Virus record (IMG/VR): IMGVR_UViG_2061766007_000176
Reading direction: 5' to 3' (one strand)
DNA: 20,000 nt
Source of the DNA: an uncultured virus (IMG/VR IMGVR_UViG_2061766007_000176)
Lineage: Duplodnaviria > Heunggongvirae > Uroviricota > Caudoviricetes
The number at the start of each line of letters is the position of its first letter. Position 1 is the stretch's first letter. Below are positions 1-20,000 of this stretch, piece by piece. A model generated the notes under the pieces. That model worked only from the letters and a program-made list of their open reading frames with translations, searched no databases and was not told where the DNA came from. A program made the position numbers and the translations under genes.

Positions 1-2
1 AA

Positions 3-632
3 CTGGGCGCGAAAGAAGCAAATAGTTATTGGGGTATGTGTTCTGGAGCAAATTCAGATACAGTTTATATCAGAACCACTACAAAAGGTTTACTTCCTTA
101 TGAAAGCGGTGGATCTGGTAGTGGCCATGGTAATATTGGTACATCTTCATGGCGCTTTTCCGCAGCTTATATAGATACTGTTACTACGAATAAAACTTAT
201 GGTGCTGTTTGGAACGATATTGCAGAATGTCGTAAAGCTACCATTACAGAACCTGGACGCGTAGTAGTAGAAAATAAATTTGGTGCGATGGAGTTAGCTT
301 CTCAACGATTACAGCCTACTGGTAGAATTATATCGGATACATATGGTTATTGTATGGGTGATCCATCAATCAATGATGTGCCAATAGCCATTGCAGGTCG
401 TGTTCTTGTATATCCATATCGTGATCCTAGTAAGTATTCATTAGGCGATTGCGTCTGCGCCGCGCCAAATGGAACTGTTGATATTATGACAAGAAAAGAG
501 ATTCAAAAATATCCGGACCGAATTATTGGTATAGTGAGTGAAATTCCAAATTATGAAGTGTGGTCTGGTGGCGCGCAAAATGGTAATGATGATATTCAAG
601 TTAAGGATCGAATTTGGATTTATATTCGCTAA
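3..632 (+). CDS. C-terminal part of a phage tail/tail-fibre protein with an intramolecular-chaperone/autoproteolytic-like C-terminus (5' truncated by window)
   Basis: Frame open from base 3 to TAA 630-632; GAVWNDIAE...PGRVVVE...IISDTYGYCMG...PIAIAGRVLVYP...YPDRIIGIVSEIP is typical of tail-fibre C-termini. Confidence 0.7.
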   Translation: MGAKEANSYWGMCSGANSDTVYIRTTTKGLLPYESGGSGSGHGNIGTSSWRFSAAYIDTVTTNKTYGAVWNDIAECRKATITEPGRVVVENKFGAMELASQRLQPTGRIISDTYGYCMGDPSINDVPIAIAGRVLVYPYRDPSKYSLGDCVCAAPNGTVDIMTRKEIQKYPDRIIGIVSEIPNYEVWSGGAQNGNDDIQVKDRIWIYIR

Positions 633-656
633 TGTTTGACTCTTATAATCTAATAT

Positions 657-685
657 TTGACTTTTTCTAAAATTTGGTGTATAAT
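657..685 (+). promoter_or_regulatory. sigma-A/70-type promoter
   Basis: TTGACT 657-662, 17-bp spacer, TATAAT 680-685. Confidence 0.75.
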
Positions 686-832
686 AAATATGTAAGGAAG
701 AGAAAAAGAATAAAAAAGAAGTTAAAGATTAACTTCAATTAACTATGGCTCCAAGATTTCACCTGCCCCGGTGAAAAAACACGGTTTGGGTGGAACGGTA
801 TATATTTGGGTGAAAAGGTTATTCCTGGGAAG

Positions 833-867
833 ATAAGTGCGATTTAAAAATCGCACTTATTTTTTTT
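833..867 (+). terminator. Rho-independent terminator
   Basis: ATAAGTGCGATT 833-844 / AATCGCACTTAT 849-860 followed by T run. Confidence 0.85.
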
Positions 868-1061
868 ACCTGTACGAAAAAAATTATATGATTTTATTGA
901 GATTCTTCTACATATTCTATGTTAAGAGGATTCTAAAAACTTATTACGTTCTACTCCCCAAGAAGAGCGTGTAAGGATCCGACACGGTTTAGTAATATTT
1001 GCGTAGAAATAATAGGTTGTTATTTCATCTTAACAAATATTATATTTATGAGGTGATACAC

Positions 1062-1685
1062 ATGGGTGAAAACGGTTTAACAGCATCTGATGTTGCCTTA
1101 ATGTCTCGCGATGGCGATGGCTGGGGTAACGGCTGGGGCGGAATGATTTGGCTTTTCGCTATCTTAGCTATGATGGGCGGTGGTTTCGGCTGGAATAATG
1201 GCGGTAATGGTAATGCTATTNNNNNNNNNNNNNNNNNNNNNNNNNNNNNNNNNNNNNNNNCACGTGATATTCTTGCGGCAGTAACGGCCGGAACCGCGCA
1301 AGCGGTAGCAACGACTAATCAAGTATATCATGATGTAGTTGGCTATGTAGGTGATAAGTATGATGAACTTCAGCGTGATATTGCTGGTCTAGCAGTTGGT
1401 CAAGCCAATCTTTTAGCACATTAGAATGAATGTTGCTGTGGCATTTCCCGTCAGTTAATGTAGAATAATTATGATGCTGCTCTTCGTGATGCAGCAACCA
1501 ATGCTAACTTTACGGCACAAATCCAGGGTGTTAAAGATCTAATTGCTCAGGATAAGATGGAAGCAATGCAGAATCGCATTAATCAACTTGAGCTACAGAA
1601 TGCCCTCGCGGGCGTAGTCCGCTATCCGAATGGATGGACTTACAATGCCGGAAATTCTCCTTTCTGTGGAGGATGTAATATGTAA
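1062..1685 (+). CDS. Gly-rich N-terminus, coiled-coil protein with CCC motif (common clostridial-phage hypothetical family); 2 in-frame TAG
   Basis: GAGGTG RBS, ATG 1062; reads through TAG 1422 and 1461 (LAH*NECCCG...) to ...SPFCGGCNM TAA 1683-1685; spans 40-nt N gap. Confidence 0.8.
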
Positions 1686-1715
1686 TCCGAGTGTATTGAG
1701 TACACCAAACATATG

Positions 1716-1746
1716 AGAGGACGTACTTAGTACGTCCTCTTTTTTT
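1716..1746 (+). terminator. Rho-independent terminator
   Basis: AGAGGACGTAC/GTACGTCCTCT 11-bp stem + T run, just after TAA 1685. Confidence 0.85.
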
Positions 1747-1764
1747 ATTATAGGAGGAATGGTT

Positions 1765-2178
1765 ATGTTACAAATTTATTCTAATAATTTAACGGTTGCT
1801 GCCAATACAGTATTTCCTTTTAATAATGTAGTATTAGATAAAGGATGTGCAGAAGTACTTAGCGCGCCAGCAACTATTCAATTAAATTAGCGTGGTGTTT
1901 ACTTAGTAGAAATGGATGGTTTTGCTACTCCAGAAGCAGCGACAGAAGTATCTGTTCAACTAATAGTTAATGGAGTTCCACAACCACAGGCAATTTCTAG
2001 CTTTGTTCCCGCATCAGTAACAGATACTCGTACATTTGGATTTAAAACTTTTGTACGCGTACTTGAAAATAATTGTAATTGTAATTGTTTAACAAGTCCA
2101 ACAACTTTACAATTTATGAATGGCAGCACAGAAATTAGTGATGCCCATATTAATGTAGTTGTAACCAAAATTAGATAA
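1765..2178 (+). CDS. beta-sandwich protein, BclA-C-terminal/C1q-like; 1 in-frame TAG
   Basis: AGGAGG RBS, ATG 1765 MLQIYSNNLTVAANTVFPF..TIQLN*RGVYLVEMDG.. in frame with ORF 1912-2178; TAG 1888. Confidence 0.7.
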
Positions 2179-2181
2179 CAT

Positions 2182-2209
2182 GGGCGGGCGCAAGCCCGCC
2201 TTTCTTTTT
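2182..2209 (+). terminator. Rho-independent terminator-like hairpin
   Basis: GGGCGGGC-GCAA-GCCCGCCT then TTCTTTTT. Confidence 0.75.
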
Positions 2210-2223
2210 AAGGAGGAATTGTT

Positions 2224-2775
2224 ATGACAATTGAAGAGATTTTTAATAAATTAGCTTCTCATATGTGCGAAGGAGTAAGATTTCATGATGAGACGGCAAA
2301 AGCATATGATTATTTAAATTTTGAAGGTTTATATAAGTGTCATATATATCATGCAACAGAAGAAAAACATGGTTTCTTGCTTCTATCTCATTATTATATG
2401 ACTCACTATTTTAAATTATTATAGTTAGAAAATATACCTGATTCTAAATTAATACCTGACACTTGGTATAAATATACAACTTAGGTTGTAGATGGTGGCA
2501 CAAAACGTAATGCCATTAAAGAATTAATGGAAAAATGGATTAAATGGGAACAAGAAACTAAAAAATTATATGAACAAATGCGGCGCGAACTTTATGAATT
2601 AGGTGAAACTGCCGCGGTTTTATATATAGATACATACATCGATGATGTTGATAAGGAACTAGTTGATGCTCAAAAGAAATTAAATCGACTAGAAACTATA
2701 GGATATGATCTCATAGAGATTACAAACTGGTAGGAACATTTATATAAAAAATATACTAAAAAACTTGGGTGGTGA
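2224..2775 (+). CDS. ferritin-like four-helix protein; 3 in-frame TAG
   Basis: AGGAGG RBS; joins ORFs 2224-2424 and 2527-2733 through TAG 2422, 2482, 2731 to TGA 2773-2775; H..EEKH and WEQETKKLYE...DVDKEL helices. Confidence 0.7.
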
Positions 2776-2780
2776 TACCT

Positions 2781-3161
2781 ATGATTAGATTAATACAGCG
2801 TCGCTTGATTATACCGCAGGGAGACACTGGCACTTTTACTATTCCTATTTAGGGTACAATGGGTGAAAATGATAAGGCAATACTATCTATCTATGATCCA
2901 TTAACATAGAAAACTCTACTTAATAAATTGGGTACTGTAGATAGTAATAACAATGTTCTTAATTTCAATTTCATTCCAGAAGATACTCTTCAAATCGAAC
3001 CAAGTAAAAGATACCTTTGGGATATTACAATCTATCGTAACGCATTATATGATTCTGAAAATCAAAAAATAAATCATGCGGATATAGTAGATTCCTATTA
3101 TGCGGCATTTAAGCTTCCGACCTGCGAAATAAGGGCGGTGACTTCAGATGTTCAAAAGTAA
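2781..3161 (+). CDS. putative baseplate/virion beta-rich protein; 2 in-frame TAG
   Basis: GGTGA RBS, ATG 2781 MIRLIQRRLIIPQGDTGTFTIPI*G; TAG 2850, 2907; in frame with ORF 2928-3161; QGDT and YLWDI motifs resemble BppU-like domains. Confidence 0.65.
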
Positions 3162-3627
3162 TAGAGAGCGCACACGCGACTTATTATTAGAATACGATAT
3201 TCGTATTATGCCGCCTCGTCCGCGCGCAGCAGGACTGGCGATGGTGTATCCTTGGTTAAACAGTAATACTGCTGACCAAGGCTGGGTAGATATTCCACCA
3301 ATTCCAGATACTCCAGAATTCCAAGTGGTATATCCTTGGGAATCTATTGGACTTAGTATTCTCGGAGATTAGATTTATATGCTGGCTGCGAACAGTGGTT
3401 ATACTGGAACTCGTGAAGATTTCCATCGTTATTTTGGCACATATCTTAATGATAATAAGTGGGAAATTCTATTTGAAAGTTATAACAATTTCCCAGAAAT
3501 TGGTGCAATAGATAAATTATATTTTGATTTAGATGAAAATATATTATATTATTGGGATGAAACTGAATATAAACCCGTTAATGCTATGCTAATTACTAAT
3601 ACCATTTTAAATGGAGGTGACGCTTAA
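3148..3627 (+). CDS. putative virion/tail protein; 1 in-frame TAG
   Basis: ORFs 3148-3372 and 3379-3627 are in one frame joined by TAG 3370; GYTGTREDF and FPEIGAIDKLYFD motifs. Confidence 0.7.
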
Positions 3628-4337
3628 TGGCAACTAATTCTGTAAAAGTTACATTATAGATTCGTCACGATGAAGCGGCAGATTGGGTAACAAGAAATCC
3701 AATTTTAGCATAGGGCGAATATGGTTTGGAAACTAATACTTTTCTTATTAAAGTAGGTGATGGAGTTCGTGATTGGACACATTTACCCTATCTAAATAAA
3801 TTAGATAGTACATATTTCAAATGGAATACTGATGGTACAATTACTTTTAGCGATGAATTTGCTCAAACCATTAGTAATATTATAATAAATGCTGGTGGGT
3901 CTACAAAGATTGTTATATCAGATGATCCTGTAGAAGAAACCGATCCAATTAATTTACGCTATTTATAGGAAGCAATATAGACAGCCATTCTTAACGCGCA
4001 TCATCTTAAACGATAGGTTGTAGAATATTTACCATCTGCCGCAAGCGCTGATGTAGATACCCTATATATGGTTCTCGCGCAATCCGGAGATCATTATGAA
4101 GAATATATGGCTATTAATGGTGTTTGGGATATGGTAGGTTCTACAGGTGATGGAGGCTCTGGTATTTTTCAACTAGAGGTTGCAACGGAAGCTCGCTTAG
4201 GCGGAGTTCGAGCGTCTCAATTAGCTGATCAAATTAATGTAAATGCTGAAGGTATTATGACATTAAATTAGGTTGCAACAACTAAATTATACGTTCCAAC
4301 AGGAGATACTTTTATTATCTATGGCGGCAGTGCTTAA
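3627..4337 (+). CDS. tail-fibre-type protein with Mtd/hyaluronidase-like N-terminal domain; multiple in-frame TAG
   Basis: GGAGG RBS, TAATG overlap; VTL*IRHDEAADW..NPILA*GEYGLETNT..KVGDG matches the QxR..W..NP.LAQGE.G.ETDT..KIGDG motif; ends TAA 4335-4337. Confidence 0.8.
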
Positions 4338-4351
4338 AGGAGGTGAGCTAA

Positions 4352-6175
4352 ATGGCGGAACATATGATTGAATCTAGAATTTTGTTACGCTATGACACCT
4401 TGGATCATTGGATGAACAGTACTGTTATTCTAAAGCAGGGAGAAGCAGCTATTGCCGCGTCCACTTTTGATTATACTATTGAAGATACAAATCATCGACC
4501 AGCACATACTCCACCTGCTATTGGTATTAAAATTGGTGATGGATATCATTATTTTTCAGAATTGCCTTGGGTTCAAGCAGTTGCTGGTGATGTATATAAT
4601 TGGGCTAAACAACAAACAAAACCGCAATATACCGCAAATGAAATTTCTGGACTAATATCACTTATATAGTAGTGTATATAGGAAGCAGGCGGCGGAAGCG
4701 GTTCTGGCTCTGGTCCAGTTACTGTTGAGGCTCGTGCCTATCGTTTAACATAGGGAACTGGTAGTAATACTAATAAATATTACTTATAGTCTAAGGGTGC
4801 GAATGATGAAGATTGGGTTACAGATGAATTACATTATGTAGATTTAACCCAGTTAGCTAATGTTTTAGAATGGCTAGGGCCTGGTATCGATGATTATTGG
4901 AATATTACTGGTTTTACTGTAGATAAATTAAATGCGCGCTTATAGCAATTAAATTACACAGATAATACAACTAATAATACAGTGGTTACTGCTGTTAATC
5001 AAATAAATGGCCAAATTAGCGTTTCTCGTGGATCAGTTAATACTAATATGATTGATGGCGTTTTAGATGTTGAACATGGAGGCACCGGTAAAAGTTCATT
5101 AGAATATGATTCTATATTAGTAGGTAATGGAACCGGCGCGATACAAACTCGACCTATTGAAACTATTTTAATCAATGATAATAATTTTGCTACTAATCGT
5201 GCTATTATTAATTATATTGAAAACGCTACAGCTGGTCTTACCGGTGCTATGCACTTCATAGGTGAAGCTACTGTAGAAATAACGAATGGTTCCCCCGTCA
5301 ATCCTCGCATTGAGGGATATAATTTTTCTTTAGCGGAATTAGGAGATGTTATTTTATTTAATTCAGCTGAATATGTTTGGACCGGAGTAAATTGGCGCTT
5401 ACTAGGTGATGAAGGTAGTTATGCGATTAAAGGCTCAATACGTAATGTTGATATTGCTGATGATGCTAATATTTCTCCTTCTAAAATTGCTAATTTAGTT
5501 ACAACTTTAGATTCTAAAGTAGATAAACAAGATGGAAAATCATTAAGTACAAATGATTTTACCAACGATTATAAAAATAAACTTGATAATATTGAAGATG
5601 AAGCCTAGCGTAATATTATTGAGCACGTATATGTAAATGGCACTGAAGTACTTCCATCTACTATTGATGGAAATCCTAATTCTTTAGGATTACGTGTGAG
5701 TGCCTTAACGCCAGAAGAAGAAGAAAAAATCGCTGGAATTGAGGCCCACGCGCAAGTAAATAAAATTGAACATATATTTCTAAATGAAAATGAATTAAAT
5801 ATAGGTACAGTAAAAAATTTAGCTAAATCTGTAAATATTTAGTTAAATGAATTTACTAATGCTGAAAAAGAAAAACTAGCTGGAATAGAAAATGGCGCTC
5901 AAGTTAATAAAATTGAGACTATTAATATTAATGGTACAGATTATACTCCTAATAATAATAAAGAAATTTAGATTACTATTGACTAGGCCGCTTTAAATCT
6001 AAATGTTCTTGAAGGCGCGAGATATCCCTCTGGAAATAATCAATATACTGATGTAGATATTACAAATAAGAAATTAGAATTAAGTAAAGTTGCGGCAACA
6101 GGCAATATTAATGATCTAGTACAACCTTCTGGCTATGTTATATTTAATTGTGGTAGTAGCACAGAAGTTATTTAA
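4352..6175 (+). CDS. tail fibre protein (607 aa) with Mtd-like N-terminus and three K(L/I)xxIExxAQxN repeats; many in-frame TAG
   Basis: AGGAGGTG RBS; no TAA/TGA in frame until 6173-6175; contains ORFs 4352-4669 and 4982-5608; KVDKQDGKSLSTNDFT motif. Confidence 0.85.
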
Positions 6176-6194
6176 ATAATAAGGAGGAATGAAT

Positions 6195-6701
6195 ATGCCA
6201 CAATATAATACACGCATATAGTTAAAAAGCGATACTGAGGCGAATTGGAATAAAGTTCCAAATTTCGTTCCTCTTGATGGGGAATTTATTATTTATTCAG
6301 TCGATAATGAGCATTCTTATTGTCGTTTAAAAGTTGGCGATGGCACAACAACAATATCAAATTTATCTTTTATAGATTCGGGTACTATTAATGGTGAAGA
6401 GGTAGAAATAGTTAAAAAAGTAACTTTTAGTCAATTTCCATAGCCTGGATCATCAGATAAATTATACATAGATTTATCAACTAATCGTATTTATCATTAT
6501 GATACCTATAATGGATATGCACAACTATCAAATTTTTCTTTTGAAGTTACAAAAACAGCGACATCTATTATTAATAGATGGAGTGCCGGTACTGTTACTA
6601 CGGCGTCGGTTAATGATAATATATTAAGTATAAAAAATGGCTTAATACCAGAATTATCTTATCAAAATATATAGGTAGTAAGTGATATACAAAGGGAGTG
6701 A
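6195..6701 (+). CDS. tail-associated protein with Mtd-like N-terminal domain; 3 in-frame TAG (absent from ORF track)
   Basis: AAGGAGG RBS; MPQYNTRI*LKSDTEANW...PLDGEFIIY...LKVGDG; TGA 6699-6701. Confidence 0.8.
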
Positions 6702-6706
6702 GTTAA

Positions 6707-7672
6707 ATGGGAACATATGTGGGTAAATTACAAATAGGCAATGATAGCAATAATTTAATTGCTTTTGGTGATATTTTATATGGTACTTGTACTACCGCAG
6801 CATCAACCGCGACAAAAGAGGTTTCAATAGCAAATTTAGATAGAGTACTATAGGGTGTTCAAATACGTGTTAAATTTACCGCAGGTAATAGCGCAACATC
6901 GAGCGTAAAATTAACTTTCCCTGGAACCTCTATTACTGAACACTTTGTATAGGGTGATTGCGTGTGCTCAGCCGATAGCGTGATTAGCTTTACTTATGAT
7001 TATGATGGAACTAATGGATATTGGCGCGTAACCAGTGGTGGTATTAATCAGGCAATTAGAGATTATATAACTGGGGTAACTAGTGGAGCTATTAATGCTG
7101 TAGATGCTTTAGTATTTAAAGGAACTTTAGGCAATGGTGGTAATATTACTGCTGTACCAGATGGTACTTCTGGGCATACTTATAAAATTGGTGAAACCTA
7201 TAGAATTATTACTCCAGGAACTTATGCTGGACAGGCATGTGAAAGTGGTGATTTATTAATTGCTATTGCTAATTCAATAGAAAACTAGACTCAAGTTAAT
7301 AATGATCACTGGACTGTGGCATAGACTAATATAGATGGCGCAGTTATAGGCCCAGCTGCGGATAATAATTTAGGAAATCATGTTGCTATTTTTAATGGCA
7401 CTACAGGTAAATTAATTAAAGATAGTGGTTTTACTATTGGTAAGTCAGTACCATCCGATGCTGTTTTTACAGATCATGAATATCATTTAGATACCACCAA
7501 TGTATCGCCATATACCGCTAGTGAAGCAATGACATCTGATTCTGATGGTAATGGAACTGTCCTAGTTACTGTAGAAGCTGGTATATTAAAACTAGCAAAT
7601 GGTATAAAATTTACAACTAGTACAGCAGTGGGAACCGCTGTATTAGATGCTGGAGCAACCCATTCAAGTTAA
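6707..7672 (+). CDS. tail fibre protein; 4 in-frame TAG
   Basis: GGGAG RBS; YGTCTTAASTATKEV, ALVFKGTLG, WTVA*TNIDGAVIGP, VPSDAVFTD; TAA 7670-7672. Confidence 0.85.
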
Positions 7673-7689
7673 TTAAGGAGGTGAGCTAA

Positions 7690-9813
7690 ATGGCTGCTAC
7701 AATAGGAAATTTTATTGATCGAATCTAGCTGGGTACCGATGATACCCATCAAATAGCCATTGGCTCTTCAGCTTATGCCGTATGCGAAACTATCGCATCA
7801 ACCCAAGTAAAAGAAATTACAATTCCAGGTTTTACTTTAAACACTGGTACCACAATTCATGTTAAATTTATATATGAAAACACTGCTACAGATCCATAGT
7901 TAAAAATTGGAACTGGCACACCACAATATATTGTACAATATGGTATTGAAAAAGTTGGAACAAATAGTGAAACTGCCGGATGGTAGGCGGGTGCAGTTTT
8001 AACTTTAACATATGATGGTACAAATTGGGTAAGGGATTAGGGTTATAATACTAATACAAGTTATACACATCCAACCACTTCTGGTAATAAACATATTCCA
8101 TCTGGTGGATCGGCCGGAAAAATACTTGGATGGGCTAGTGATGGTACAGCTGAATGGATTGATTATTCAGGTAATGATGGAAATACTTATAAACCTAAAC
8201 AGACAGCTTTTACTGATAGTACCGGTACTCCCGATGGTAATAATACCGCTACAGCTTTTATTTACTCATTCTCATAGAATGAAAATGGTGTCGTCCAAGA
8301 TATAATAACTCGCGCATTACCAGTAGCATCAACTACCGCTCCAGGTATTATTCAAATAGGAACTGAGTCAACGCATGCATTAGCCGGTGACACCGTTGTA
8401 ACTAATGTATCTTTTACTAATATAACTTCCTCCAATGATGAGTATCCCGTATTATTTAAAAATACTACTGGTACCACTAATAGTGATGGTGGCGTTTGTT
8501 TTATTTCTGCAAACGAGAAAAATGTAACTATTAATGGTAGTACCGGCAAATTAAGTGCAGAAGCAGGGTTTATTGGAAATGTTACTGGTGATTTAACTGG
8601 AACCGCGTCCTATGCAACTGCGGATTCATAGGGAAATACTATTCATACCACCTATGCTCCAATAAATAGCCCTGAGTTTACAGGTACACCATTAATTACA
8701 ACGACCCCAACCGATGGTGATAGTAGTCATAAAATTGCTGACACCGCTTTTGTAATGAATACATTAAAATATGTTGATGCAATGTTATTTAAAGGAACTA
8801 TTGGTGATATAGATGATAATCCTACTGTAACTTCTTTACCAATAATACATGAAGCAGGCTGGACATATCGTGTTGTCACTGCCGCTACATATAGTATTAC
8901 AGATTCTACTGGTCGATATTGTGAAGAAGGCACTCTAATTATTTGTACAACCGATGGAACAGCAAGTAATCCTGCTGATTGGACAGCTATAGAAACTAAT
9001 GAAGACGGCGCGGTTATAGGACCTACTAGTAGCACTAATAATGATATTGTAACATTTTCTGCAACCTCTGGTAGAGTTATACAAGATAGTGGAAAGACAT
9101 TTTCTACAGCTACTCCAACTACCTCATCAACTGATAATTAGATTCCAACATCTAAAGCTGTATGGGCGGCGATTAATGGTTTAGATACTATTATAAGTGG
9201 TTGTGGAGCAGAAAAAACTCTTGCAACATTAACTGAATCTGATGGTATAATTAGTGCAACATTTTAGAATGTTGCTATTTCACTGACCGCCGCAGCAGAG
9301 AGTAGTTATTGGAATTTTACAGGTTCTAACAATAATGAAACAAATAAAGTAAAATATTCATTAGCACCATATAGTTCTAAATAGAATGGAGCTAATTTTT
9401 ATACTGGGACAACAGCTCCAGATGGCACTGACCGTTTAAATTATAATGGTTATTTTTATGCAACAAATTTATACTCAAGTAAAGTATATCCAGGAACTAA
9501 TACCAGTTATGGTAATGCATATACTCCAATTTATTGGAATGATGGCGTTCCTGCTGAAGTTACCATAATAAAAAAATATACATTTAGTTTTGCTGATTCG
9601 GGCGCGACAACTACAGTTGTTACGCCAGATAATATTAATATTGGAACTCATATAGTAACAGAAATTGTAGTTGATACCGGTATATCACATCTAAATGGAT
9701 CAATTAGCTGGAATGTGCCAACTACTGGTGATAATGCAAATAAAATTGTATTAACTACTATAGCTACATCAGGTACTGTAAGTGGTTATATTTTAGTTTC
9801 TACAGGATCTTAA
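7690..9813 (+). CDS. long tail fibre / receptor-binding protein (707 aa); many in-frame TAG
   Basis: AGGAGGTG RBS; single frame with only TAG interruptions; YTHPTTSGNKHIPSGG, APINSPEFTGTP, AMLFKGTIG, DWTAIETNEDGAVIGP; TAA 9811-9813. Confidence 0.85.
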
Positions 9814-9817
9814 ATAC

Positions 9818-9847
9818 TTGACAACTTATTATAAAATATGTTATAAT
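9818..9847 (+). promoter_or_regulatory. sigma-A-type promoter (extended -10) upstream of holin
   Basis: TTGACA 9818-9823, 18-bp spacer, TGnTATAAT ending 9847. Confidence 0.7.
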
Positions 9848-9871
9848 AAAGAAAAAAAGGAGGTAATTCCT

Positions 9872-10207
9872 ATGGATGCCACTCAAATTTTACTTGGTAT
9901 TATTTTAATTTTAGGTGGTATAGCGACGCTAATCGTCTGGCCTTACATTAAAACTCATGTTTCTGCTGAATAGCTTTCTATATTAGCAGGAATTGCATAG
10001 ACTGTGGTGTATGCAGCTGAAAAGATCTTCGGCGCAAAAATGGGTGAAGATAAATTAGCCTATGCTTTAAACCTAGCAAAGAAACTACTTGAAAAGAAAG
10101 GTGTAACTTTCGACGAAGAAGTAATCCGTGCGGCAATCGAGGCACAAGTACAAGAATTAGATTTAAATCAGCAAGTCCTTGAAGAACCCGAGGAAACGGA
10201 AGAATGA
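9872..10207 (+). CDS. phage holin, LL-H family-like; 2 in-frame TAG
   Basis: AGGAGG RBS; N-terminal TM helix ILLGIILILGGIATLIVWPYIK; VYAAEKIFG..GEDKLAYA..IRAAIEAQV; TAG 9971, 9998. Confidence 0.8.
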
Positions 10208-10479
10208 AAGCTTACGTAAGTACTGCTAATAAGGGATCAGTAAATTTGCGCGAATCCACTAGTAAATCTAGTAAGGTTCTCGCGCAGATCCCTTATGGCA
10301 CTGCTCTCGAAATTGAATATGTAGATAATACATGGTCACGCACGGGATATAATGGAAAAGTAGGTTATGTAATGACCGAATTCTTATCAAATGGAAAATC
10401 AATTACAAAAAATGATTTACAACAAGTATATGATAGTCTTAAGAAAGCTCTTGAGACTATTGAAAAAATATTAAAGTGA
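10204..10479 (+). CDS. SH3b-domain protein (cell-wall binding)
   Basis: VNLRESTSKSSKVLAQIPYG...W..GYNGKVGYVMTEFL; ATGA overlap with holin. Confidence 0.8.
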   Translation: MKAYVSTANKGSVNLRESTSKSSKVLAQIPYGTALEIEYVDNTWSRTGYNGKVGYVMTEFLSNGKSITKNDLQQVYDSLKKALETIEKILK

Positions 10480-10486
10480 GGTAACT

Positions 10487-10681
10487 ATGGACGAATTTGG
10501 ATGCCCATATTGTTGGGACTCAAAGAAAGAAAAAGAAAAAGAGCTGTACTTCTTTGATGCAGCAAATAATTTTAAACTATGCGACTACTGCCCCAAGTGT
10601 GGTCGTAAGTATGGGGAGGAAACGGTTAATGAATACATGGAATCAAAACAACGTAATGATGGGGTAGACACCGCAATATAA
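10487..10681 (+). CDS. small zinc-ribbon protein
   Basis: GAGG RBS; CPYC...YCPKCGR. Confidence 0.65.
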   Translation: MDEFGCPYCWDSKKEKEKELYFFDAANNFKLCDYCPKCGRKYGEETVNEYMESKQRNDGVDTAI

Positions 10682-11018
10682 CCCCTATCTACAAAGATTG
10701 CCAGTTTATTCTGCGGCACCAATACATGGAGAAAATGCAGCATGGCAATTTCCAATGGGCTCTAATAGTGAAATATATTTACCAGATGCAGATGAAGATA
10801 TAATTTGGTGGATACGTACAGATGCTACGGGCAATAGAAGTGTCTAGCCTTTTGATGTGTCACCGCATAAAAAGCCAGAACCTATTGATATGAATAATAT
10901 ATTAGAACGTTTGGGTGCAGTGGAGGAATGGATAAATGGCAAGTAGAATAAGTCAAATGCGAAACGAGCTACCACAACAGTAGCTCCCGCAACAACTGTC
11001 ACAGCAACAGTTGAATGA
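10629..11018 (+). CDS. hypothetical phage protein; 3 in-frame TAG (absent from ORF track)
   Basis: GGAGG RBS, MNTWNQNNVMMG*TPQYNPY..IHGENAAWQFPMGSNSEIYLPD..WIRTDATG..; TGA 11016-11018. Confidence 0.7.
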
Positions 11019-11571: not shown

Positions 11572-11640
11572 ATAAGTAGAATATGAGGGTAAGGAACCTC
11601 ATTTCTAAATAAAATTTCATAACATAGGGAGGTTATGATT

Positions 11641-11985
11641 ATGGCTATTCGTGTTTATTCGGATAAAACCAAACAGTTCTATAACACAGTGGAGGAAGCA
11701 AACCGCGCTGAGTTTGAACTAAAAGAGAAAGAGAATCTTGAAAAGATTCAGAAAGAGCGCGAGCTTGCACTCGCAAAAGAAAAGAAGGAAAAGGCGCTAG
11801 CAGAACGTAAGGCCGCTGCTGAAAAGGTAGAAGCCGCACGTAAAGCATTCAATGAAGCGAGAAAAGCATATCATGCTGAACTTGAAACCTTCTGTAAGAA
11901 GTACGGCACTTATCATTATACCACTGATGGTAAAGATGATGTTCCATCTCTATTCGATCTCTTTGATAACATTTTCAAGTTCTAA
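11641..11985 (+). CDS. coiled-coil hypothetical protein (no TAG)
   Basis: GGGAGG RBS; E/K/A-rich heptads. Confidence 0.8.
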   Translation: MAIRVYSDKTKQFYNTVEEANRAEFELKEKENLEKIQKERELALAKEKKEKALAERKAAAEKVEAARKAFNEARKAYHAELETFCKKYGTYHYTTDGKDDVPSLFDLFDNIFKF

Positions 11986-12014: not shown

Positions 12015-12107
12015 AGCCCCTTAGTTCAACGGTAGAACACCGGTCTCTAAAACCGTTATATCCCTCTGAAGGAGGTAGTCAGGGTTCGAATCCCTGAGGG
12101 GCCGCCA
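12015..12107 (+). tRNA. amber suppressor tRNA (anticodon CTA), Trp-like body, 23-nt variable region, encoded CCA
   Basis: Acceptor AGCCCCT/AGGGGCC+G+CCA; D arm GTTC/GAAC; loop CT-CTA-AA (anticodon 12047-12049); T arm CAGGG-TTCGAAT-CCCTG. Confidence 0.85.
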
Positions 12108-12111
12108 CACA

Positions 12112-12176
12112 TCGGCACTTGCAGCAAATTCCTTTTATCGCCATATAAAGATACTTGATAATTATCGAGGTGCCGA
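12112..12176 (+). ncRNA. stem-CAGCAA-loop element copy 1 (skipping-rope-like)
   Basis: TCGGCAC/GTGCCGA closing stem, CAGCAA 12122-12127. Confidence 0.6.
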
Positions 12177-12181
12177 GATTT

Positions 12182-12252
12182 GCGCTTATCGTATAAAAGT
12201 AGTATACCGTCCTTCCAAGTCGGTGGTGCGGTGGCAGAATCCGCTAGGCGCT
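12182..12252 (+). tRNA. trnG: tRNA-Gly(TCC), non-canonical D and T loops
   Basis: GCGCTTA/TAGGCGC acceptor, loop CT-TCC-AA, discriminator T; no GG in D loop; T loop GGCAGAA. Confidence 0.7.
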
Positions 12253-12255
12253 CTT

Positions 12256-12590
12256 CCCAGCCTCTTCCTTGCTGGGCGCGAAAAAGGGAAGGAAGTGAGC
12301 AGACTACTTTTAAATGTCGCCAGGAGCCATAACCCTGTAGAGTCTATCCTAGGTGGACAGAATTGCGTGCTTCTTGTTGGGTACGTTAGGCATACGCAAG
12401 AGGTGGGCTACCTACCGAGGCAACAGGCTAGCAGTGAGACTACACTTAAAACCGCATCCTTCACAGCGAAATGTGCGGGCGTAAAGCGACACGTGACATC
12501 GCTAGCACAAACAGGAGTTGCGAACCTGCGCGTGCGATTCCCGCAGTTCTGAACACCTAGCGCAATTAGCTTAGTAAGAATTGCGGGAAT
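12256..12590 (+). ncRNA. candidate structured ncRNA ending in a terminator-like hairpin
   Basis: GC-richer than flanks, multiple helices, ATTCCCGCAGTTCT/AGAATTGCGGGAAT (12537-12590) followed by T-rich tract. Confidence 0.5.
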
Positions 12591-12926: not shown

Positions 12927-12995
12927 TAGGTACACGCAGCAAACTTTTTCATTTATAAAACTAATTTGCTTGTTTTTTAAACTCTTTAGTGCCTA
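12927..12995 (+). ncRNA. stem-CAGCAA-loop element copy 2 (skipping-rope-like)
   Basis: TAGGTAC/GTGCCTA stem, CAGCAA 12937-12942. Confidence 0.6.
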
Positions 12996-13404: not shown

Positions 13405-13821
13405 ATGGAATATACAACAAATCAAAAGGGTTTAATTACTGAAATGGAAGTAGCATTGTATTTAATTAAATTAGGATATAATGTATCACAACCATTAAAT
13501 GCAGATAGTAAATATGATTTTATTGTGGATACTGGTAAACAACTGTTACGAATACAGGTAAAAACTTCACATTTAAATAAAAATGAAACTGGTTTTGAAT
13601 TTAAATGTCGTTCTGTAACAGTAAATAGTAACAAAGTTAATTGTCATTATTATAGTTCTGATGATGTAGATTATTTTGCGACTTATTGGAATGGAGAAGT
13701 TTATTTAGTACCTGTAAATCAATGTTCTTCGGTTAAGAATTTATATTTTGAAAAACACGCTCGTGATGGAGTATGTTGGTGCGAAGATTATAAAGCAAGC
13801 GAGGTGTTAAAAGCACTGTGA
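13405..13821 (+). CDS. PD-(D/E)XK homing endonuclease, group I intron-associated (I-Ssp6803I-like) family
   Basis: KGLITE..GYNVSQP..SKYDFIVD..LLRIQVKT..Y.SDDVDYFATY..VYLVPV; true start ATG 13405 after the N gap. Confidence 0.85.
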   Translation: MEYTTNQKGLITEMEVALYLIKLGYNVSQPLNADSKYDFIVDTGKQLLRIQVKTSHLNKNETGFEFKCRSVTVNSNKVNCHYYSSDDVDYFATYWNGEVYLVPVNQCSSVKNLYFEKHARDGVCWCEDYKASEVLKAL

Positions 13822-13832
13822 ACATTGTTAGG

Positions 13833-13882
13833 CAAGGTTAGGTCACGGGTCCGAATCCCGTTAGGTGCTCTTATATTTAGAC
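13833..13882 (+). repeat. 3' half of tRNA-Gly(GCC) plus trailer, identical to 14170-14219
   Basis: 50-nt exact direct repeat CAAGGTTAGG...TTTAGAC ending at an N gap. Confidence 0.85.
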
Positions 13883-14135
13883 NNNNNNNNNNAATGCGCG
13901 TAAAGGTGCCGACTAGGTCGCGGATCAGGTTTCATTGGCTTTAATCGCTGCGTTAAGGCAATAAAAGCATACATACGTATGGGCGCTGAGGCAACGCCCT
14001 CTATCGGAGAAACCCTCATTCAAAACGCCCGAAAACCGTAGGGAGGAATGGAGTTCCACGCCGGTGAGGCCATCCGGAATAGACAGTTCGATTCTGTATA
14101 CGGCGTACCGATATGAAGTTCGGAGTAGGGCACAT

Positions 14136-14206
14136 GCACCTATAGTGTAGTGGTAACATATGACCTTGCCAAGGTTAGGTCACGGGTCCGAATCCCGTTA
14201 GGTGCT
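14136..14206 (+). tRNA. trnG: tRNA-Gly(GCC)
   Basis: GCACCTA/TAGGTGC, loop TT-GCC-AA, T arm ACGGG-TCCGAAT-CCCGT. Confidence 0.9.
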
Positions 14207-14214
14207 CTTATATT

Positions 14215-14336
14215 TAGACACATACAGCAAATTACTTTTTAGATGACTTGTAATCCGTGTGTTTTAGGTTCGAGCCCTGACAAGAGCATTGCTCTTGTAG
14301 CTCAATTGGTAGAGCGACGTACTTATATGGTGTCTA
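14215..14336 (+). ncRNA. stem-CAGCAA-loop element copy 3, enclosing the permuted tRNA
   Basis: TAGACAC 14215-14221 / GTGTCTA 14330-14336; CAGCAA 14225-14230. Confidence 0.7.
14245..14319 (+). tRNA. circularly permuted tRNA-Thr(TGT): 3' half 14245-14288 precedes 5' half 14291-14319
   Basis: Reordered: GCTCTTG-TA-GCTC-AATTGGTA-GAGC-G-ACG|GA-CTTGTAA-TCCGT-GTGTT-TTAGG-TTCGAGC-CCTGA-CAAGAGC-A, a complete cloverleaf. Confidence 0.85.
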
Positions 14337-14388
14337 GTTTTGCGACATAGAAATATGCCGCTTATTTGTATATAATGGAGGAAAAAGG

Positions 14389-17297: not shown

Positions 17298-17370
17298 CGC
17301 AGGTAAGACAAGCGGCTAAGTCAGGTGGCTCATAACCATCGTTTGACGGGTTCGACTCCCGTACCTGCTA
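17298..17370 (+). tRNA. trnM: tRNA-Met(CAT) (1:72 mismatch; initiator/elongator/Ile2 status unclear)
   Basis: CGCAGGT/ACCTGCT, GGTGG-CTCATAA-CCATC, ACGGG-TTCGACT-CCCGT. Confidence 0.85.
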
Positions 17371-17374
17371 CTAT

Positions 17375-17447
17375 GGCTCCTTAGCTCAGTTGGTAGAGCA
17401 AGCGGCTGTTAACCGCTGGGTCAAAGGTTCGAGTCCTTTAGGAGCCG
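17375..17447 (+). tRNA. trnN: tRNA-Asn(GTT)
   Basis: Canonical cloverleaf, loop CT-GTT-AA. Confidence 0.95.
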
Positions 17448-17630
17448 CTTGGGAACTTGTCCCTATTAAGAACAAGTGGGCGCATCGCAGGTTCGATCTG
17501 CGTAGTCGAGAGAAAAAGTTATATATTCTATACAAGTTCGAGTCTTGTTTAGCACGGCGCAATAGATATATATAATCTGCAGTAATTAAGCTACTCTTGC
17601 CAGGCTTGGATGCATACAAGTCTGTAATAT

Positions 17631-19082: not shown

Positions 19083-19136
19083 AGGCGCTAACAGCAAACT
19101 TTTTCAATGCTAAACATATTAAAAGATCGTGCGCCT
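19083..19136 (+). ncRNA. stem-CAGCAA-loop element copy 4 (skipping-rope-like)
   Basis: AGGCGC/GCGCCT stem, CAGCAA 19092-19097. Confidence 0.6.
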
Positions 19137-19171
19137 AGTATTCCCCTCTCTACTGGCTAGTGGGAATGGTG

Positions 19172-19727
19172 CTGGGTTAAGCGGAAATGAATCGCACCTT
19201 AAACACGGTATGTCCGCATACAAGCGCAACCCGCCACGGCATTTTAAATCTATTGCAATAGACCGTGGCACGCCTCTGTAAACGTCTCATTGAGGGTATA
19301 AGACAGACGTTAAACCGTGGAAATACCCCAACGCGCAAAATCATGCTGCGCGAAATAAATGAAGTGAAGCACAGGTGATCGCCACACGGAAAGTGTCTGA
19401 AAAACAAAAATGGGCGCTCCAAGGACAGGAGCGAGATCAAAAGGCTCTTGCTGGTCAGTGTGGCATGCAGAAAGCAAGTAAAACACGGGGTCGCGCACGT
19501 GCAGGGGCAGAAACGCACGTAAATAACAGACTGCCTGGGTCGTGTTTAATGAGCACAACCTTCATACGTTCGGTGCCGAGATCGTAATGGTCTCGAATAC
19601 TAGTTGCGCTGAAATGATATGGTGACCAGCAAGTCGAAAAACTGCCGTTTGGGCTGCGTGAGATGCGCCGGGTCCACCGTGCGAATGCACAAGCGTTTAC
19701 CATAGCGCTGGGTTTCGCTTCACCCAG
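19172..19727 (+). ncRNA. candidate large (~560 nt) pseudoknotted ncRNA
   Basis: Closing helix 19172-19186/19713-19727 and several 7-11 bp long-range helices, some crossing; no credible ORF. Confidence 0.65.
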
Positions 19728-19881
19728 AGGAAGTTCCTCTAAAGAAGATTATATGGTAAACCATCGGTAGACTGCTCCGAAAGGGACAGTATAAAAGATC
19801 TTCTGGCTACTCGAAGAGTAGTAGCATCCTACAATAGACCTGCCAGCGCCTCTACTGACGAGTATGCGTACCTTGGGGGGC

Positions 19882-19918
19882 ACCGCAAAGAGCACGCGGT
19901 ATATAAAGAGAATGCTCT
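19882..19918 (+). ncRNA. H-type pseudoknot unit, CptI-like
   Basis: ACCGC/GCGGT, ATATAAA, AGAGCA/TGCTCT. Confidence 0.65.
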
Positions 19919-19951
19919 CGGCCGTAGCCTGATGCATAAGGCACGGCACTT

Positions 19952-20000
19952 GCCCGAGTGGTGGAATAGGCAGACACAACAGACTTATTAATTTGAGCAC
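19952..20000 (+). tRNA. trnL: 5' exon of tRNA-Leu(TAA) followed by the start of a probable group I intron (truncated)
   Basis: GCCCGAG-TG-GTGGAATAGGCAGACAC-A-ACAGA-CTT then ATTAATTTGAGCAC; CTTA/TGAG forms a P1-like helix with U34-G wobble. Confidence 0.65.

Follow-up and report, generated by a model that had tools for sequence, protein, structure and literature searches.

The element at positions 14215 to 14336 of the 20,000-nucleotide stretch of uncultured phage DNA analysed here (the window; IMG/VR record IMGVR_UViG_2061766007_000176) is best explained, with a probability that we put at about 70%, as an RNA of the Y-RNA type, which carries a mimic of tRNA-Thr(UGU) as its cargo and the likely partner of which is a Ro60-like protein of the DUF2828 family. 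In this element the 3' half of a tRNA precedes the 5' half, and the permuted tRNA is enclosed by a closing stem (the clamp) with a CAGCAA motif beside it. The fold is kept by covariation across a large family of phage and bacterial RNAs.

An earlier note made from the sequence alone (the original prediction) had described the parts of the element, and on re-reading all of its coordinates hold (table 1). When 14291-14319 is joined to 14245-14288, ARAGORN calls a 73-nt tRNA-Thr(tgt) with a 7-bp acceptor, a 5-bp anticodon stem, a 7-nt loop and a 5-nt variable loop, which is the full cloverleaf that had been claimed; in its native order 14215-14336 gives no tRNA with ARAGORN or with Rfam at gathering thresholds. 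The identity of tRNA-Thr follows the rule G1-C72, C2-G71 and A73, and the joined tRNA carries both of the pairs that had been noticed, plus A73. The clamp TAGACAC/GTGTCTA pairs as described, with CAGCAA at 14225-14230. The chain enters and leaves the anticodon stem between positions 29 and 30, and the acceptor is sealed by a 3-nt loop. At the break the two strands leave the anticodon stem at one point and do not meet again before the clamp, at distances of 23 and 10 nt. No bulge-helix-bulge was read at the 29/30 break from the sequence or the folds, a formal motif search not being part of this reading, and the consensus scan called no terminator at 14330..14341.

The CAGCAA scaffold is found again in public contigs, in well over 100 of them. 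Each of three pattern scans run on viral contigs returned at least about 121 loci, and the family counts given below are those among the matches listed. By definition the frame opens with the first strand of a 6-12-bp stem; 1-4 nt, CAGCAA and an insert that varies follow, and the second strand of the stem closes it. The window element has all of these parts. The acceptor is closed in 74 of 82 non-redundant matches to the pattern "CAGCAA ... T loop ... D arm", and an exact GTGTCTA follows within 300 nt at 46 of 60 non-redundant TAGACACNNACAGCAA sites. The inserts at these 46 GTGTCTA-closed sites are 26 to 186 nt long and vary in kind between A/U-rich stretches and complete permuted tRNA-like modules; because their length varies so widely and many framed inserts are not tRNA-like, the frame is independent of its cargo. 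Where a tRNA-like cargo is present, its acceptor is sealed by UUCG or GAAA tetraloops or by 2-3-nt loops, G1 is often missing (position 1 is G in only 20 of 34 members), and three relatives encode ACCA within the acceptor loop.

A covariance model (R1) was built from 18 members, the window element itself being among the seeds, and gave 77 matches at E<=1e-13 in 90 chosen sources. In the resulting alignment pairing holds in 96.8% of the cells, and at 24 of the 28 pairs both partners change; the covariation score reaches 0.824, compared with 0.189 in shuffles (0 of 500 reach the observed value) and 0.08-0.16 with slid partners. The clamp (helix 1), which was not a selection criterion, is 97% paired with changes on both sides at all 7 pairs. 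The two parts of the anticodon stem (helices 2 and 3) are 91% and 86% paired, again with changes on both sides, the T arm (helix 4) is 99.7% paired, and the acceptor (helix 5), in sources preselected for at least 6 of 7 acceptor pairs, is 98.1% paired and covaries at every one of its 7 pairs. The window element, as a seed member, scores 103.1 bits with R1; its orthologues, which score 92-99 bits, and the covarying clamp support its membership independently. The original prediction had named the same permutation with covariation in related phages as a check on itself, and it is these 24 covarying pairs that answer it.

The split anticodon arm was followed in 97 non-redundant elements of the form "T arm / closed acceptor / D arm" from public contigs, an arm being counted when its 5-bp anticodon stem was perfect and its 7-nt loop had U33 and purine 37. 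Such an arm is present in 50 of the 97, of which 9 are ordinary tandem tRNAs and 41 are split within the stem; in about half of the closed-acceptor elements the anticodon arm is missing. The break lies at 28/29 in 18 of the split arms, at 29/30 in 17, at 30/31 in 4 and at 31/32 in 2. When the arm was sought 15, 25, 35, 45 or 55 nt further upstream, 0, 0, 1, 0 and 4 of the 97 elements passed, and the split arrangement is therefore more than chance. The anticodons displayed by the 41 arms are UGU (9), UUU (8), GAU (4), AUG (4), GUU (3), UGG (2), UCU (2) and GAG (2), with UAG, UAA, CAU, GUC, GAA, CCC and ACA in a single copy each; arms of the Thr, Lys, Ile, Asn, Arg, Pro, Leu, Met, Asp and Phe types are represented. 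In the three cases compared, the anticodon stem of the mimic is not a copy of the canonical tRNA of the same phage. As a side observation, 27 of the 41 split arms (Thr, Lys, Ile, Asn, Arg-UCU, Met) read ANN codons, with A37 in all of them. Transfer RNAs that read ANN codons normally carry t6A37, and the ANN bias may simply mirror an AT-rich codon use in these phages.

The comparison of the element with its orthologues separates what is kept from what is exchanged. Viral fragment G006 matches window positions 13902-14340 at 74% identity and has the same order of a structured RNA of about 240 nt, tRNA-Gly and framed element, and four metagenome contigs (PAPS reductase 92% identical) carry the element at the same place; the neighbouring tRNA-Gly(GCC) is retained at the orthologous loci. 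Conservation extends over the frame, the D arm and the bases on either side of the anticodon loop. The acceptor and T stems differ yet still pair, and ACG/CGU becomes GCG/CGC. All 5 orthologues have the loop UUGAGGA (anticodon GAG), and CUUGUAA is found in the window alone, so that a Leu-type anticodon sits in them on a body with a short (5-nt) variable loop, several copies of which have no A73. Contigs from two other studies replace the insert altogether: in one, 14209 is joined to 14330 with 110 other letters between, and in the second, 14132 is joined to 14330 with 303 other letters between. Among contigs from reads of four other studies, none at 85% likeness or more spans 14244-14270, and several short "skips" in these contigs (sides of 20-30 nt) look like cross-matches between tRNAs. 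Since anticodons and inserts differ at one and the same site, the cargo turns over quickly inside a stable frame.

The protein partner is suggested by co-occurrence. The set of carriers consisted of 10 virus records (7 complete) and 5 bacterial genomes. Pfam TROVE was found in 0 of these 15 records and DUF2828 (PF11443) in 13, among them all 7 complete virus records and all 5 bacterial genomes; the two carriers without it are fragments, 5-7% complete. In 10 of the 13 records the DUF2828 gene lies about 0.2-3.5 kb from the RNA, and in Treponema saccharophilum a DUF2828 + DUF7788 (PF25043, vWA) gene stands just downstream of it on the same strand. Among controls, DUF2828 is present in 1 of 22 phage records with tRNA arrays but without the element, and in 0 of 14 control genomes; in the single positive control record the gene adjoins weak R1 matches. 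The association has p = 3.8e-7 by Fisher's exact test. Proteins with DUF2828 and DUF7788 are very common; they also occur in Treponema, Akkermansiaceae, Ruminococcus and Bacilli genomes, and tblastn detects the DUF2828 protein in 705 cultured-phage records, some of which, in mycobacteriophages, are annotated "Ro-like RNA binding protein"; the PHROG 850 label for the family is "RNA-binding protein".

The AlphaFold2 model of a phage DUF2828 member (predicted local distance difference test 84.7, predicted template modelling score 0.83) gives this protein the Ro60 ring fold. Searched with Foldseek, its top 12 rows are all Ro60/TROVE, and with VIA ten Ro60/TROVE entries have Z 14.6-10.7 over about 320-400 residues (the top seven at least 12.6), the next match being a vWA-only entry at Z 8.5. 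The model has the helical-repeat ring and a vWA domain with the metal-ion-dependent adhesion site, whose DxSGS is invariant in the protein alignment (A5). The Ro60 protein of phage phiLo is its first or second structural match, at a sequence identity of only 14-15%. By sequence DUF2828 has no match in the PDB or in NCBIfam, and Pfam TROVE (PF05731) is found in none of ten DUF2828 proteins, one of which gives a weak vWA_Ro60 match (E 0.0022). As Pfam TROVE misses these Ro60-like proteins, a survey that takes "no TROVE" to mean "no Ro60" will count too few of these systems. The accessible literature on DUF2828 holds incidental mentions, and no functional study was found in it.

Of the known RNAs, the bacterial Y RNA YrlA is closest to the element. 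A permissive Rfam scan aligns the full YrlA model (RF02553) at 14239-14340 with 42.6 bits and E 1.7e-7, and 20 family members score 32.8-58.4 bits with the same model; for the scaffold, other Rfam families (ribozyme, group I intron etc.) gave nothing at E<=5. The tRNA-like domain of YrlA has been found near Ro60 genes in 254 bacteria and 22 phages (Chen 2014, PMC4201824), where it has the same permuted order, so the statement in the original prediction that no such case was known in phages overlooks these Y RNAs: a permuted tRNA-like module was already known in bacteria and phages. YrlA and the element share paired RNA ends enclosing a T arm, a loop-closed acceptor-like stem and a D arm in permuted order, and the D arm of the element is nearly identical to the YrlA consensus. 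Like YrlA, the relatives of the element are encoded beside the gene of a Ro60-fold protein on the same strand, and simpler sister RNAs with the same stem often accompany members of the CAGCAA family, as YrlB accompanies YrlA. Five differences stand against these likenesses. First, the neighbour protein of the CAGCAA family is DUF2828+DUF7788 and not Pfam TROVE; second, ACAGCAA takes the place of GNCGAAN0-1G; third, the score is under the Rfam cut-off; fourth, the element has a full 5-bp anticodon stem and a 7-nt loop, which are absent from the YrlA consensus; fifth, it sits within phage tRNA arrays. The tRNA-like domain of YrlA is modified by TruB and DusA, and GNCGAAN0-1G near the YrlA 5' end is the proposed contact with Rsr (PMC4201824).

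The frame is also present in cultured phages, namely in Felix O1, in a P100-like Listeria phage and in a mycobacteriophage. In Felix O1 four CAGCAA frames (L577 5755-6587) follow ORF86, one of them with permuted tRNA-like cargo. In mycobacteriophage OhShagHennessy the Ro-like gene is followed by three frames, of which one gives a YrlA match of 39.8 bits, and Listeria phage LMSP-25 has three directly upstream of the Ro-like coding sequence, with RtcB 1.3 kb after the gene. Downstream of the Listeria Ro-like gene we observed an HD phosphohydrolase and the RtcB "tRNA splicing ligase" (L576:6802-8013 and 6069-6500), a layout reminiscent of the rsr-yrlBA-rtcBA RNA-repair operon of Salmonella. Another RNA, ROOL, shares such clusters of tRNAs and frames: it scores 190 bits in a viral contig (L007:500-853) and 88.5 bits (below the cut-off) in LMSP-25 (L576:2422-2973), where it lies between tRNAs, about 640 nt before the three frames.

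Published work on such phages, as far as its accessible text goes, touches the same loci. In a P100-like Listeria phage the Ro-like protein is found in virions, and up to 2 kb upstream there are three very highly transcribed unannotated regions, which the authors guess to be Y RNAs (PMC12282133). In the Felix O1-like phage Bas63 a gene-essentiality study reported that the Ro60-like gp130 counters the Ppl defence system, and its authors guess that some "tRNA genes" near gp130 are Y RNAs (PMC11482910). The gp130 gene lies directly upstream of a tRNA array, the place at which Felix O1 has its frames; in the text available, no RNA partner was identified for gp130 (PMC11482910). Judging from the matches in Felix O1-like phages, gp130 is probably a DUF2828 member. 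The protein of Thermus phage phiLo, which the authors of the report name a Ro60 homologue, binds Yrl1 and Yrl2, two Y-like RNAs from the neighbourhood of its gene (PMC12135203). These adjoining small stem-bulge RNAs and the Ro60-fold protein of a phage resemble our pair; the phiLo RNAs have CGAA instead, and in the accessible text of the report no tRNA-like cargo is described for them (PMC12135203). Neither the CAGCAA frame nor an anticodon-bearing cargo is described in PMC4201824, PMC12282133, PMC11482910 or PMC12135203, so far as the accessible parts of these papers go, and among the titles and opening lines of abstracts on permuted tRNAs together with phages none concerned phage genes.

How could such an RNA work? 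Y-RNA stems dock on Ro60, and by analogy the 7-bp stem with its ACAGCAA frame would dock on the Ro60-like protein; from its sequence conservation we propose that ACAGCAA may be the docking site. The tRNA-shaped cargo would engage a factor that reads tRNA-Thr(UGU), candidates for which are a synthetase, an enzyme of modification or processing, and a defence nuclease of the host that targets tRNAs. It could serve as bait or decoy, or else tether the factor and so bring it to the ring protein. The sealed acceptor and the extra arms leaving the anticodon stem would make an RNA that is not used by the ribosome. Expression of the locus, binding of the protein and the role of the anticodon arm are what we infer here. 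As the anticodon arm is complete, the likely partners are narrowed to factors that read the anticodon.

A wider proposal, which we put forward tentatively and consider rather doubtful as yet, is that phages run programmable Ro60-like ribonucleoproteins, their Y RNAs displaying real anticodon arms as anticodon-specific baits. If this were true, the ring protein would, by means of the bait, catch, block or sense those defence nucleases of the host that cleave particular tRNAs, the exchange of UGU and GAG between near-identical phages would be the trace of an arms race, and DUF2828 proteins would be the long-missing partners of "orphan" phage Y RNAs. Apart from that proposal, three aspects are highlighted. 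First, tRNA-mimicking Y RNAs have been known since 2014, and what is added here is a phage mimic with a whole and specific anticodon arm; second, phage Y-like RNAs seemingly without Ro60 go with a divergent Ro60-fold protein, DUF2828, that TROVE searches miss. Third, the RNA and protein pair is present in workhorse phages (Felix O1-like, P100-like, mycobacteriophages), which makes the question testable at the bench, and in such phages, according to the accessible parts of the reports cited above, the Ro60-like gene is tied to counter-defence and abundant unannotated RNAs lie beside the Ro-like gene.

Several observations weigh against the interpretation of the element as a Y RNA with a DUF2828 partner. 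The YrlA match of 42.6 bits is below the Rfam cut-off of 69, and the YrlA motif G.CGAA does not occur in the 75 nt before the T loop, ACAGCAA being at the equivalent place. Folding of the single sequence gives the clamp, T arm, acceptor and D arm but misses the split anticodon stem, and the fold of the element is no better than that of shuffles (z -1.2 and -1.7 in two runs). Within the family, helix 3 (27-29 with 41-43) is the weakest, at 86% paired; the R1 alignment was fitted to the model and its sources were chosen by T-loop/D-arm motifs and a closed acceptor, which makes the covariation support for the T loop, D arm and acceptor partly circular. As to the protein, its co-occurrence with the RNA is not binding, and in three of the 13 records 15-21 kb separate the gene from the RNA. 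In the 20-kb window neither DUF2828 nor TROVE was found by Pfam on the 13 open reading frames or by tblastn, hence a TROVE gene within about 4 kb on the same strand, as expected from YrlA, is also missing there, and tblastn found no DUF2828 in the available stretches of the closest relatives. The DUF2828 gene does occur in three kin with a PAPS reductase 73-76% identical, two of which (L549, L528) also have convincing CAGCAA frames. Finally, the correct U33 and class-suited purine 37 also fit real tRNA function, as do G1-C72, C2-G71 and A73 here and the ACCA of a few relatives.

These last features lead to the possibility that the element is a true permuted tRNA gene, the product of which works in translation. 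RNase P would cut before G1, the UU would be trimmed and CCA added, leaving either a two-piece tRNA-Thr held by the clamp or, after trimming of the linkers and ligation of the nick at 29/30, an intact one; we consider this unlikely. Permuted tRNA genes of red and green algae and of an archaeon, in which the 3' half is upstream of the 5' half, give working tRNAs through a bulge-helix-bulge and a circular intermediate. They resemble the element in the short linker at the acceptor end and in the canonical cloverleaf obtained on rotation, here that of a tRNA-Thr with the identity set of its class, whereas in the element the break lies inside the anticodon stem without a bulge-helix-bulge, the hosts are bacterial, and the evidence from the family points to a mimic. 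It was shown for the Mycobacterium smegmatis YrlA (7-bp acceptor) that RNase P cuts it and that CCA is added in vivo (PMC4201824), which favours processing of this kind, as do the ACCA of the three relatives and the fact that the displayed anticodons are common in phage tRNA sets. Genes for the later steps, of the kinds named in the original prediction, were looked for in 5 complete carrier phages: an RNA-ligase domain (PF09414) is present in 4 of 5, a count given no weight as it has no control set, and RtcB, seen also after the Listeria Ro-like gene, in 1 of 5, and a CCA-adding enzyme in 0 of 5. A normal tRNA with the anticodon of the mimic is also present in 4 of 4 carrier phages that have tRNA arrays, and one complete 46-kb phage has the mimic and no tRNA at all. 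Moreover, the orthologues place GAG on a body with a 5-nt variable loop and several of their copies have no A73, tetraloop or 2-3-nt seals are common, position 1 is not G in 14 of 34 members, about half of the closed-acceptor elements have no arm, and the frame carries non-tRNA cargo as well. Of the two alternatives offered by the original prediction, excision with ligation and linker cleavage therefore has little support (no bulge-helix-bulge, sealed loops, armless members, non-tRNA cargo), and the acceptor-sealed mimic is the better supported, its decoy role being one that we infer.

That decoy role could be exercised by the RNA alone. It would then be a sponge for a reader of the tRNA-Thr(UGU) anticodon arm, for example a host anticodon nuclease, no Ro-like protein would be involved, and the clamp and CAGCAA would only stabilise the RNA or define its ends. 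On the one hand, an authentic-looking anticodon arm on a probably unchargeable body suits such a role, the change between UGU here and GAG in five orthologues within a constant frame fits an arms race, and the window and the examined stretches of the closest relatives contain no Ro-like gene. On the other hand, CAGCAA stays invariant next to a covarying stem in hosts that differ greatly, which points to a common partner that binds these RNAs; DUF2828 is strongly associated with them (13/15 versus 1/22), many frames have no anticodon arm, and no nuclease target is known for the host. We therefore regard a stand-alone decoy as improbable, and the Y-RNA reading with its protein partner is preferred.

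The element could also act at the level of DNA, as inverted repeats around exchangeable cassettes (a miniature transposon or recombination site) in which the tRNA pieces are passengers, and the highly variable inserts between identical clamps, the swap of the insert at this site in other samples (110 and 303 letters) and the exact 50-nt duplication nearby would agree with that. It is very improbable, as the clamps differ among members but stay complementary (7 of 7 pairs covary, G-U pairs being present), the asymmetric CAGCAA is always on one strand and runs in the direction of the tRNA genes, and the cargo keeps RNA-level features of tRNA in the T, D and anticodon loops. An origin by misjoining in the assembly, or as the accidental remains of two tRNA-Thr copies in tandem, can be practically dismissed even though tandem tRNAs with spacers of 2-3 nt do exist in the window (17298-17448, ARAGORN): both breaks are at the same tRNA position, so that exactly one tRNA length is kept, the architecture recurs in at least 41 independent contigs, and five relatives from other assemblies, at the same site and with compensatory changes, carry the arrangement that a misjoin or an accident, named by the original prediction as its refutation, would not have.

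Table 1. Features of the element, of its surroundings in the window and of a putative partner protein (positions refer to the window except where a contig is named)
Feature	Position	Strand	Basis or remark
Clamp, 5' strand TAGACAC	14215..14221	+	pairs with 14330-14336
ACAGCAA motif	14224..14230	+	CAGCAA invariant (C12-A17) in family seed alignment A2
A/U-rich 5' linker	14231..14244	+	sequence; varies among relatives
Anticodon stem 30-31, GA	14245-14246	+	ARAGORN on the joined halves
Anticodon loop CTTGTAA, anticodon UGU	14247-14253	+	ARAGORN on the joined halves
Anticodon stem 39-43, TCCGT	14254-14258	+	ARAGORN on the joined halves
Variable loop, 5 nt	14259-14263	+	ARAGORN on the joined halves; Rfam YrlA alignment
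T arm TTAGG / TTCGAGC / CCTGA	14264-14280	+	ARAGORN on the joined halves; Rfam YrlA alignment
Acceptor, 3' strand CAAGAGC	14281-14287	+	ARAGORN on the joined halves
Acceptor-sealing loop A+TT (A73 plus UU)	14288-14290	+	ARAGORN on the joined halves
Acceptor, 5' strand GCTCTTG	14291-14297	+	ARAGORN on the joined halves
U8-A9, D arm and G26	14298..14316	+	ARAGORN on the joined halves; Rfam YrlA alignment
D arm GCTC / AATTGGTA / GAGC	14300-14315	+	near-identical to YrlA consensus D arm
G26	14316	+	ARAGORN on the joined halves
Anticodon stem 27-29, ACG	14317-14319	+	pairs with 14256-14258
A/U-rich 3' linker	14320..14329	+	sequence
Clamp, 3' strand GTGTCTA, then GTTTT	14330..14341	+	clamp and G/T-rich tail recur in the family
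tRNA-Gly(GCC)	14136..14207	+	ARAGORN; Rfam tRNA 62.3 bits; 7 nt upstream of the element
Second CAGCAA frame, clamp TCGGCACTT/AGGTGCCGA, short non-tRNA insert	12112..12176	+	directly 3' of suppressor tRNA(CUA)
Third CAGCAA frame, TAGGTAC/GTGCCTA, A/U-rich insert	12927..12995	+	directly 3' of tRNA-Ile(UAU); script, fold
Fourth CAGCAA frame, AGGCGC/GCGCCT	19083..19136	+	downstream of promoter-like repeat; script, fold
Suppressor tRNA(CUA), 93 nt, long variable arm	12015-12107		ARAGORN
cow-rumen-4 RNA	11576-11638		80.5 bits; overlaps start of open reading frame 11635-11985
cow-rumen-3 RNA	19537-19678		145.2 bits; within non-coding G+C-rich tract 19137-20000
DUF2828+DUF7788 protein	L412:2330-3973	-	predicted Ro60-like fold

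Besides the element, the window contains three further CAGCAA frames, the inserts of which are short and not tRNA-like; for the frame at 12112-12176 folding recovers the clamp (z -1.9). ARAGORN and Rfam (gathering thresholds) each find 8 tRNAs in the window. An exact 24-mer search of the viral contigs gave 0 matches, in blastn against the phage collection the tRNA-Gly was the sole match, and the glycosyltransferase protein has no relatives among the viral contigs. Among the sequencing runs listed as containing the sequence there is no RNA run, and the best DNA runs (X1-X4) belong to one sample, from which this DNA may itself come.

The window is DNA of a phage that uses TAG as a sense codon. 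The open reading frames in 1-11 kb are open only under TAG readthrough, those of 607 and 707 aa requiring readthrough of 9-10 in-frame TAGs (window 1-11000), and the genes between 11200 and 17020 require none. The Pfam scan of the 13 open reading frames identified genes of the tail-fibre type, glycosyltransferases and a PAPS-reductase type. A promoter-like repeat of about 60 nt is present in 4 copies (11536, 12593, 17005 and 18954), with TTGAC, 17-18 nt and TATAAT, and these copies stand at the heads of RNA-rich operons. In form it resembles the strong early promoters of Listeria phage CKA15, as given in the accessible part of that report (PMC12282133). The Shine-Dalgarno sequence of the open reading frame 11635-11985 sits in the last hairpin loop of the cow-rumen-4 RNA, and the G+C-rich tract 19137-20000 starts immediately after the fourth frame.

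Upstream of the element an exact duplication of 50 nt (13833-13882 equals 14170-14219) begins in the anticodon loop of tRNA-Gly, takes in the remaining 3' part of this tRNA and the spacer, and reaches into the start of the clamp; its upstream copy enters a masked stretch. This copy comes after a PD-(D/E)XK endonuclease open reading frame (13405-13821; PDDEXK_5, E 8.5e-24), and the two together look as if a mobile endonuclease had inserted itself into a second unit of tRNA-Gly and frame. Between the duplication and tRNA-Gly there are about 240 G+C-rich nt (13893-14135), which share long invariant blocks with fragment G006, hold a T-arm-like hairpin (GACAG TTCGATT CTGT) and match no Rfam family; they are probably another structured RNA. 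The region 12182-12560 starts with a degenerate tRNA-like sequence, which scores 35.8 bits with Rfam tRNA and is not called by ARAGORN; it is followed by about 300 nt that are G+C-rich and probably structured, the surrounding phage DNA being AT-rich.

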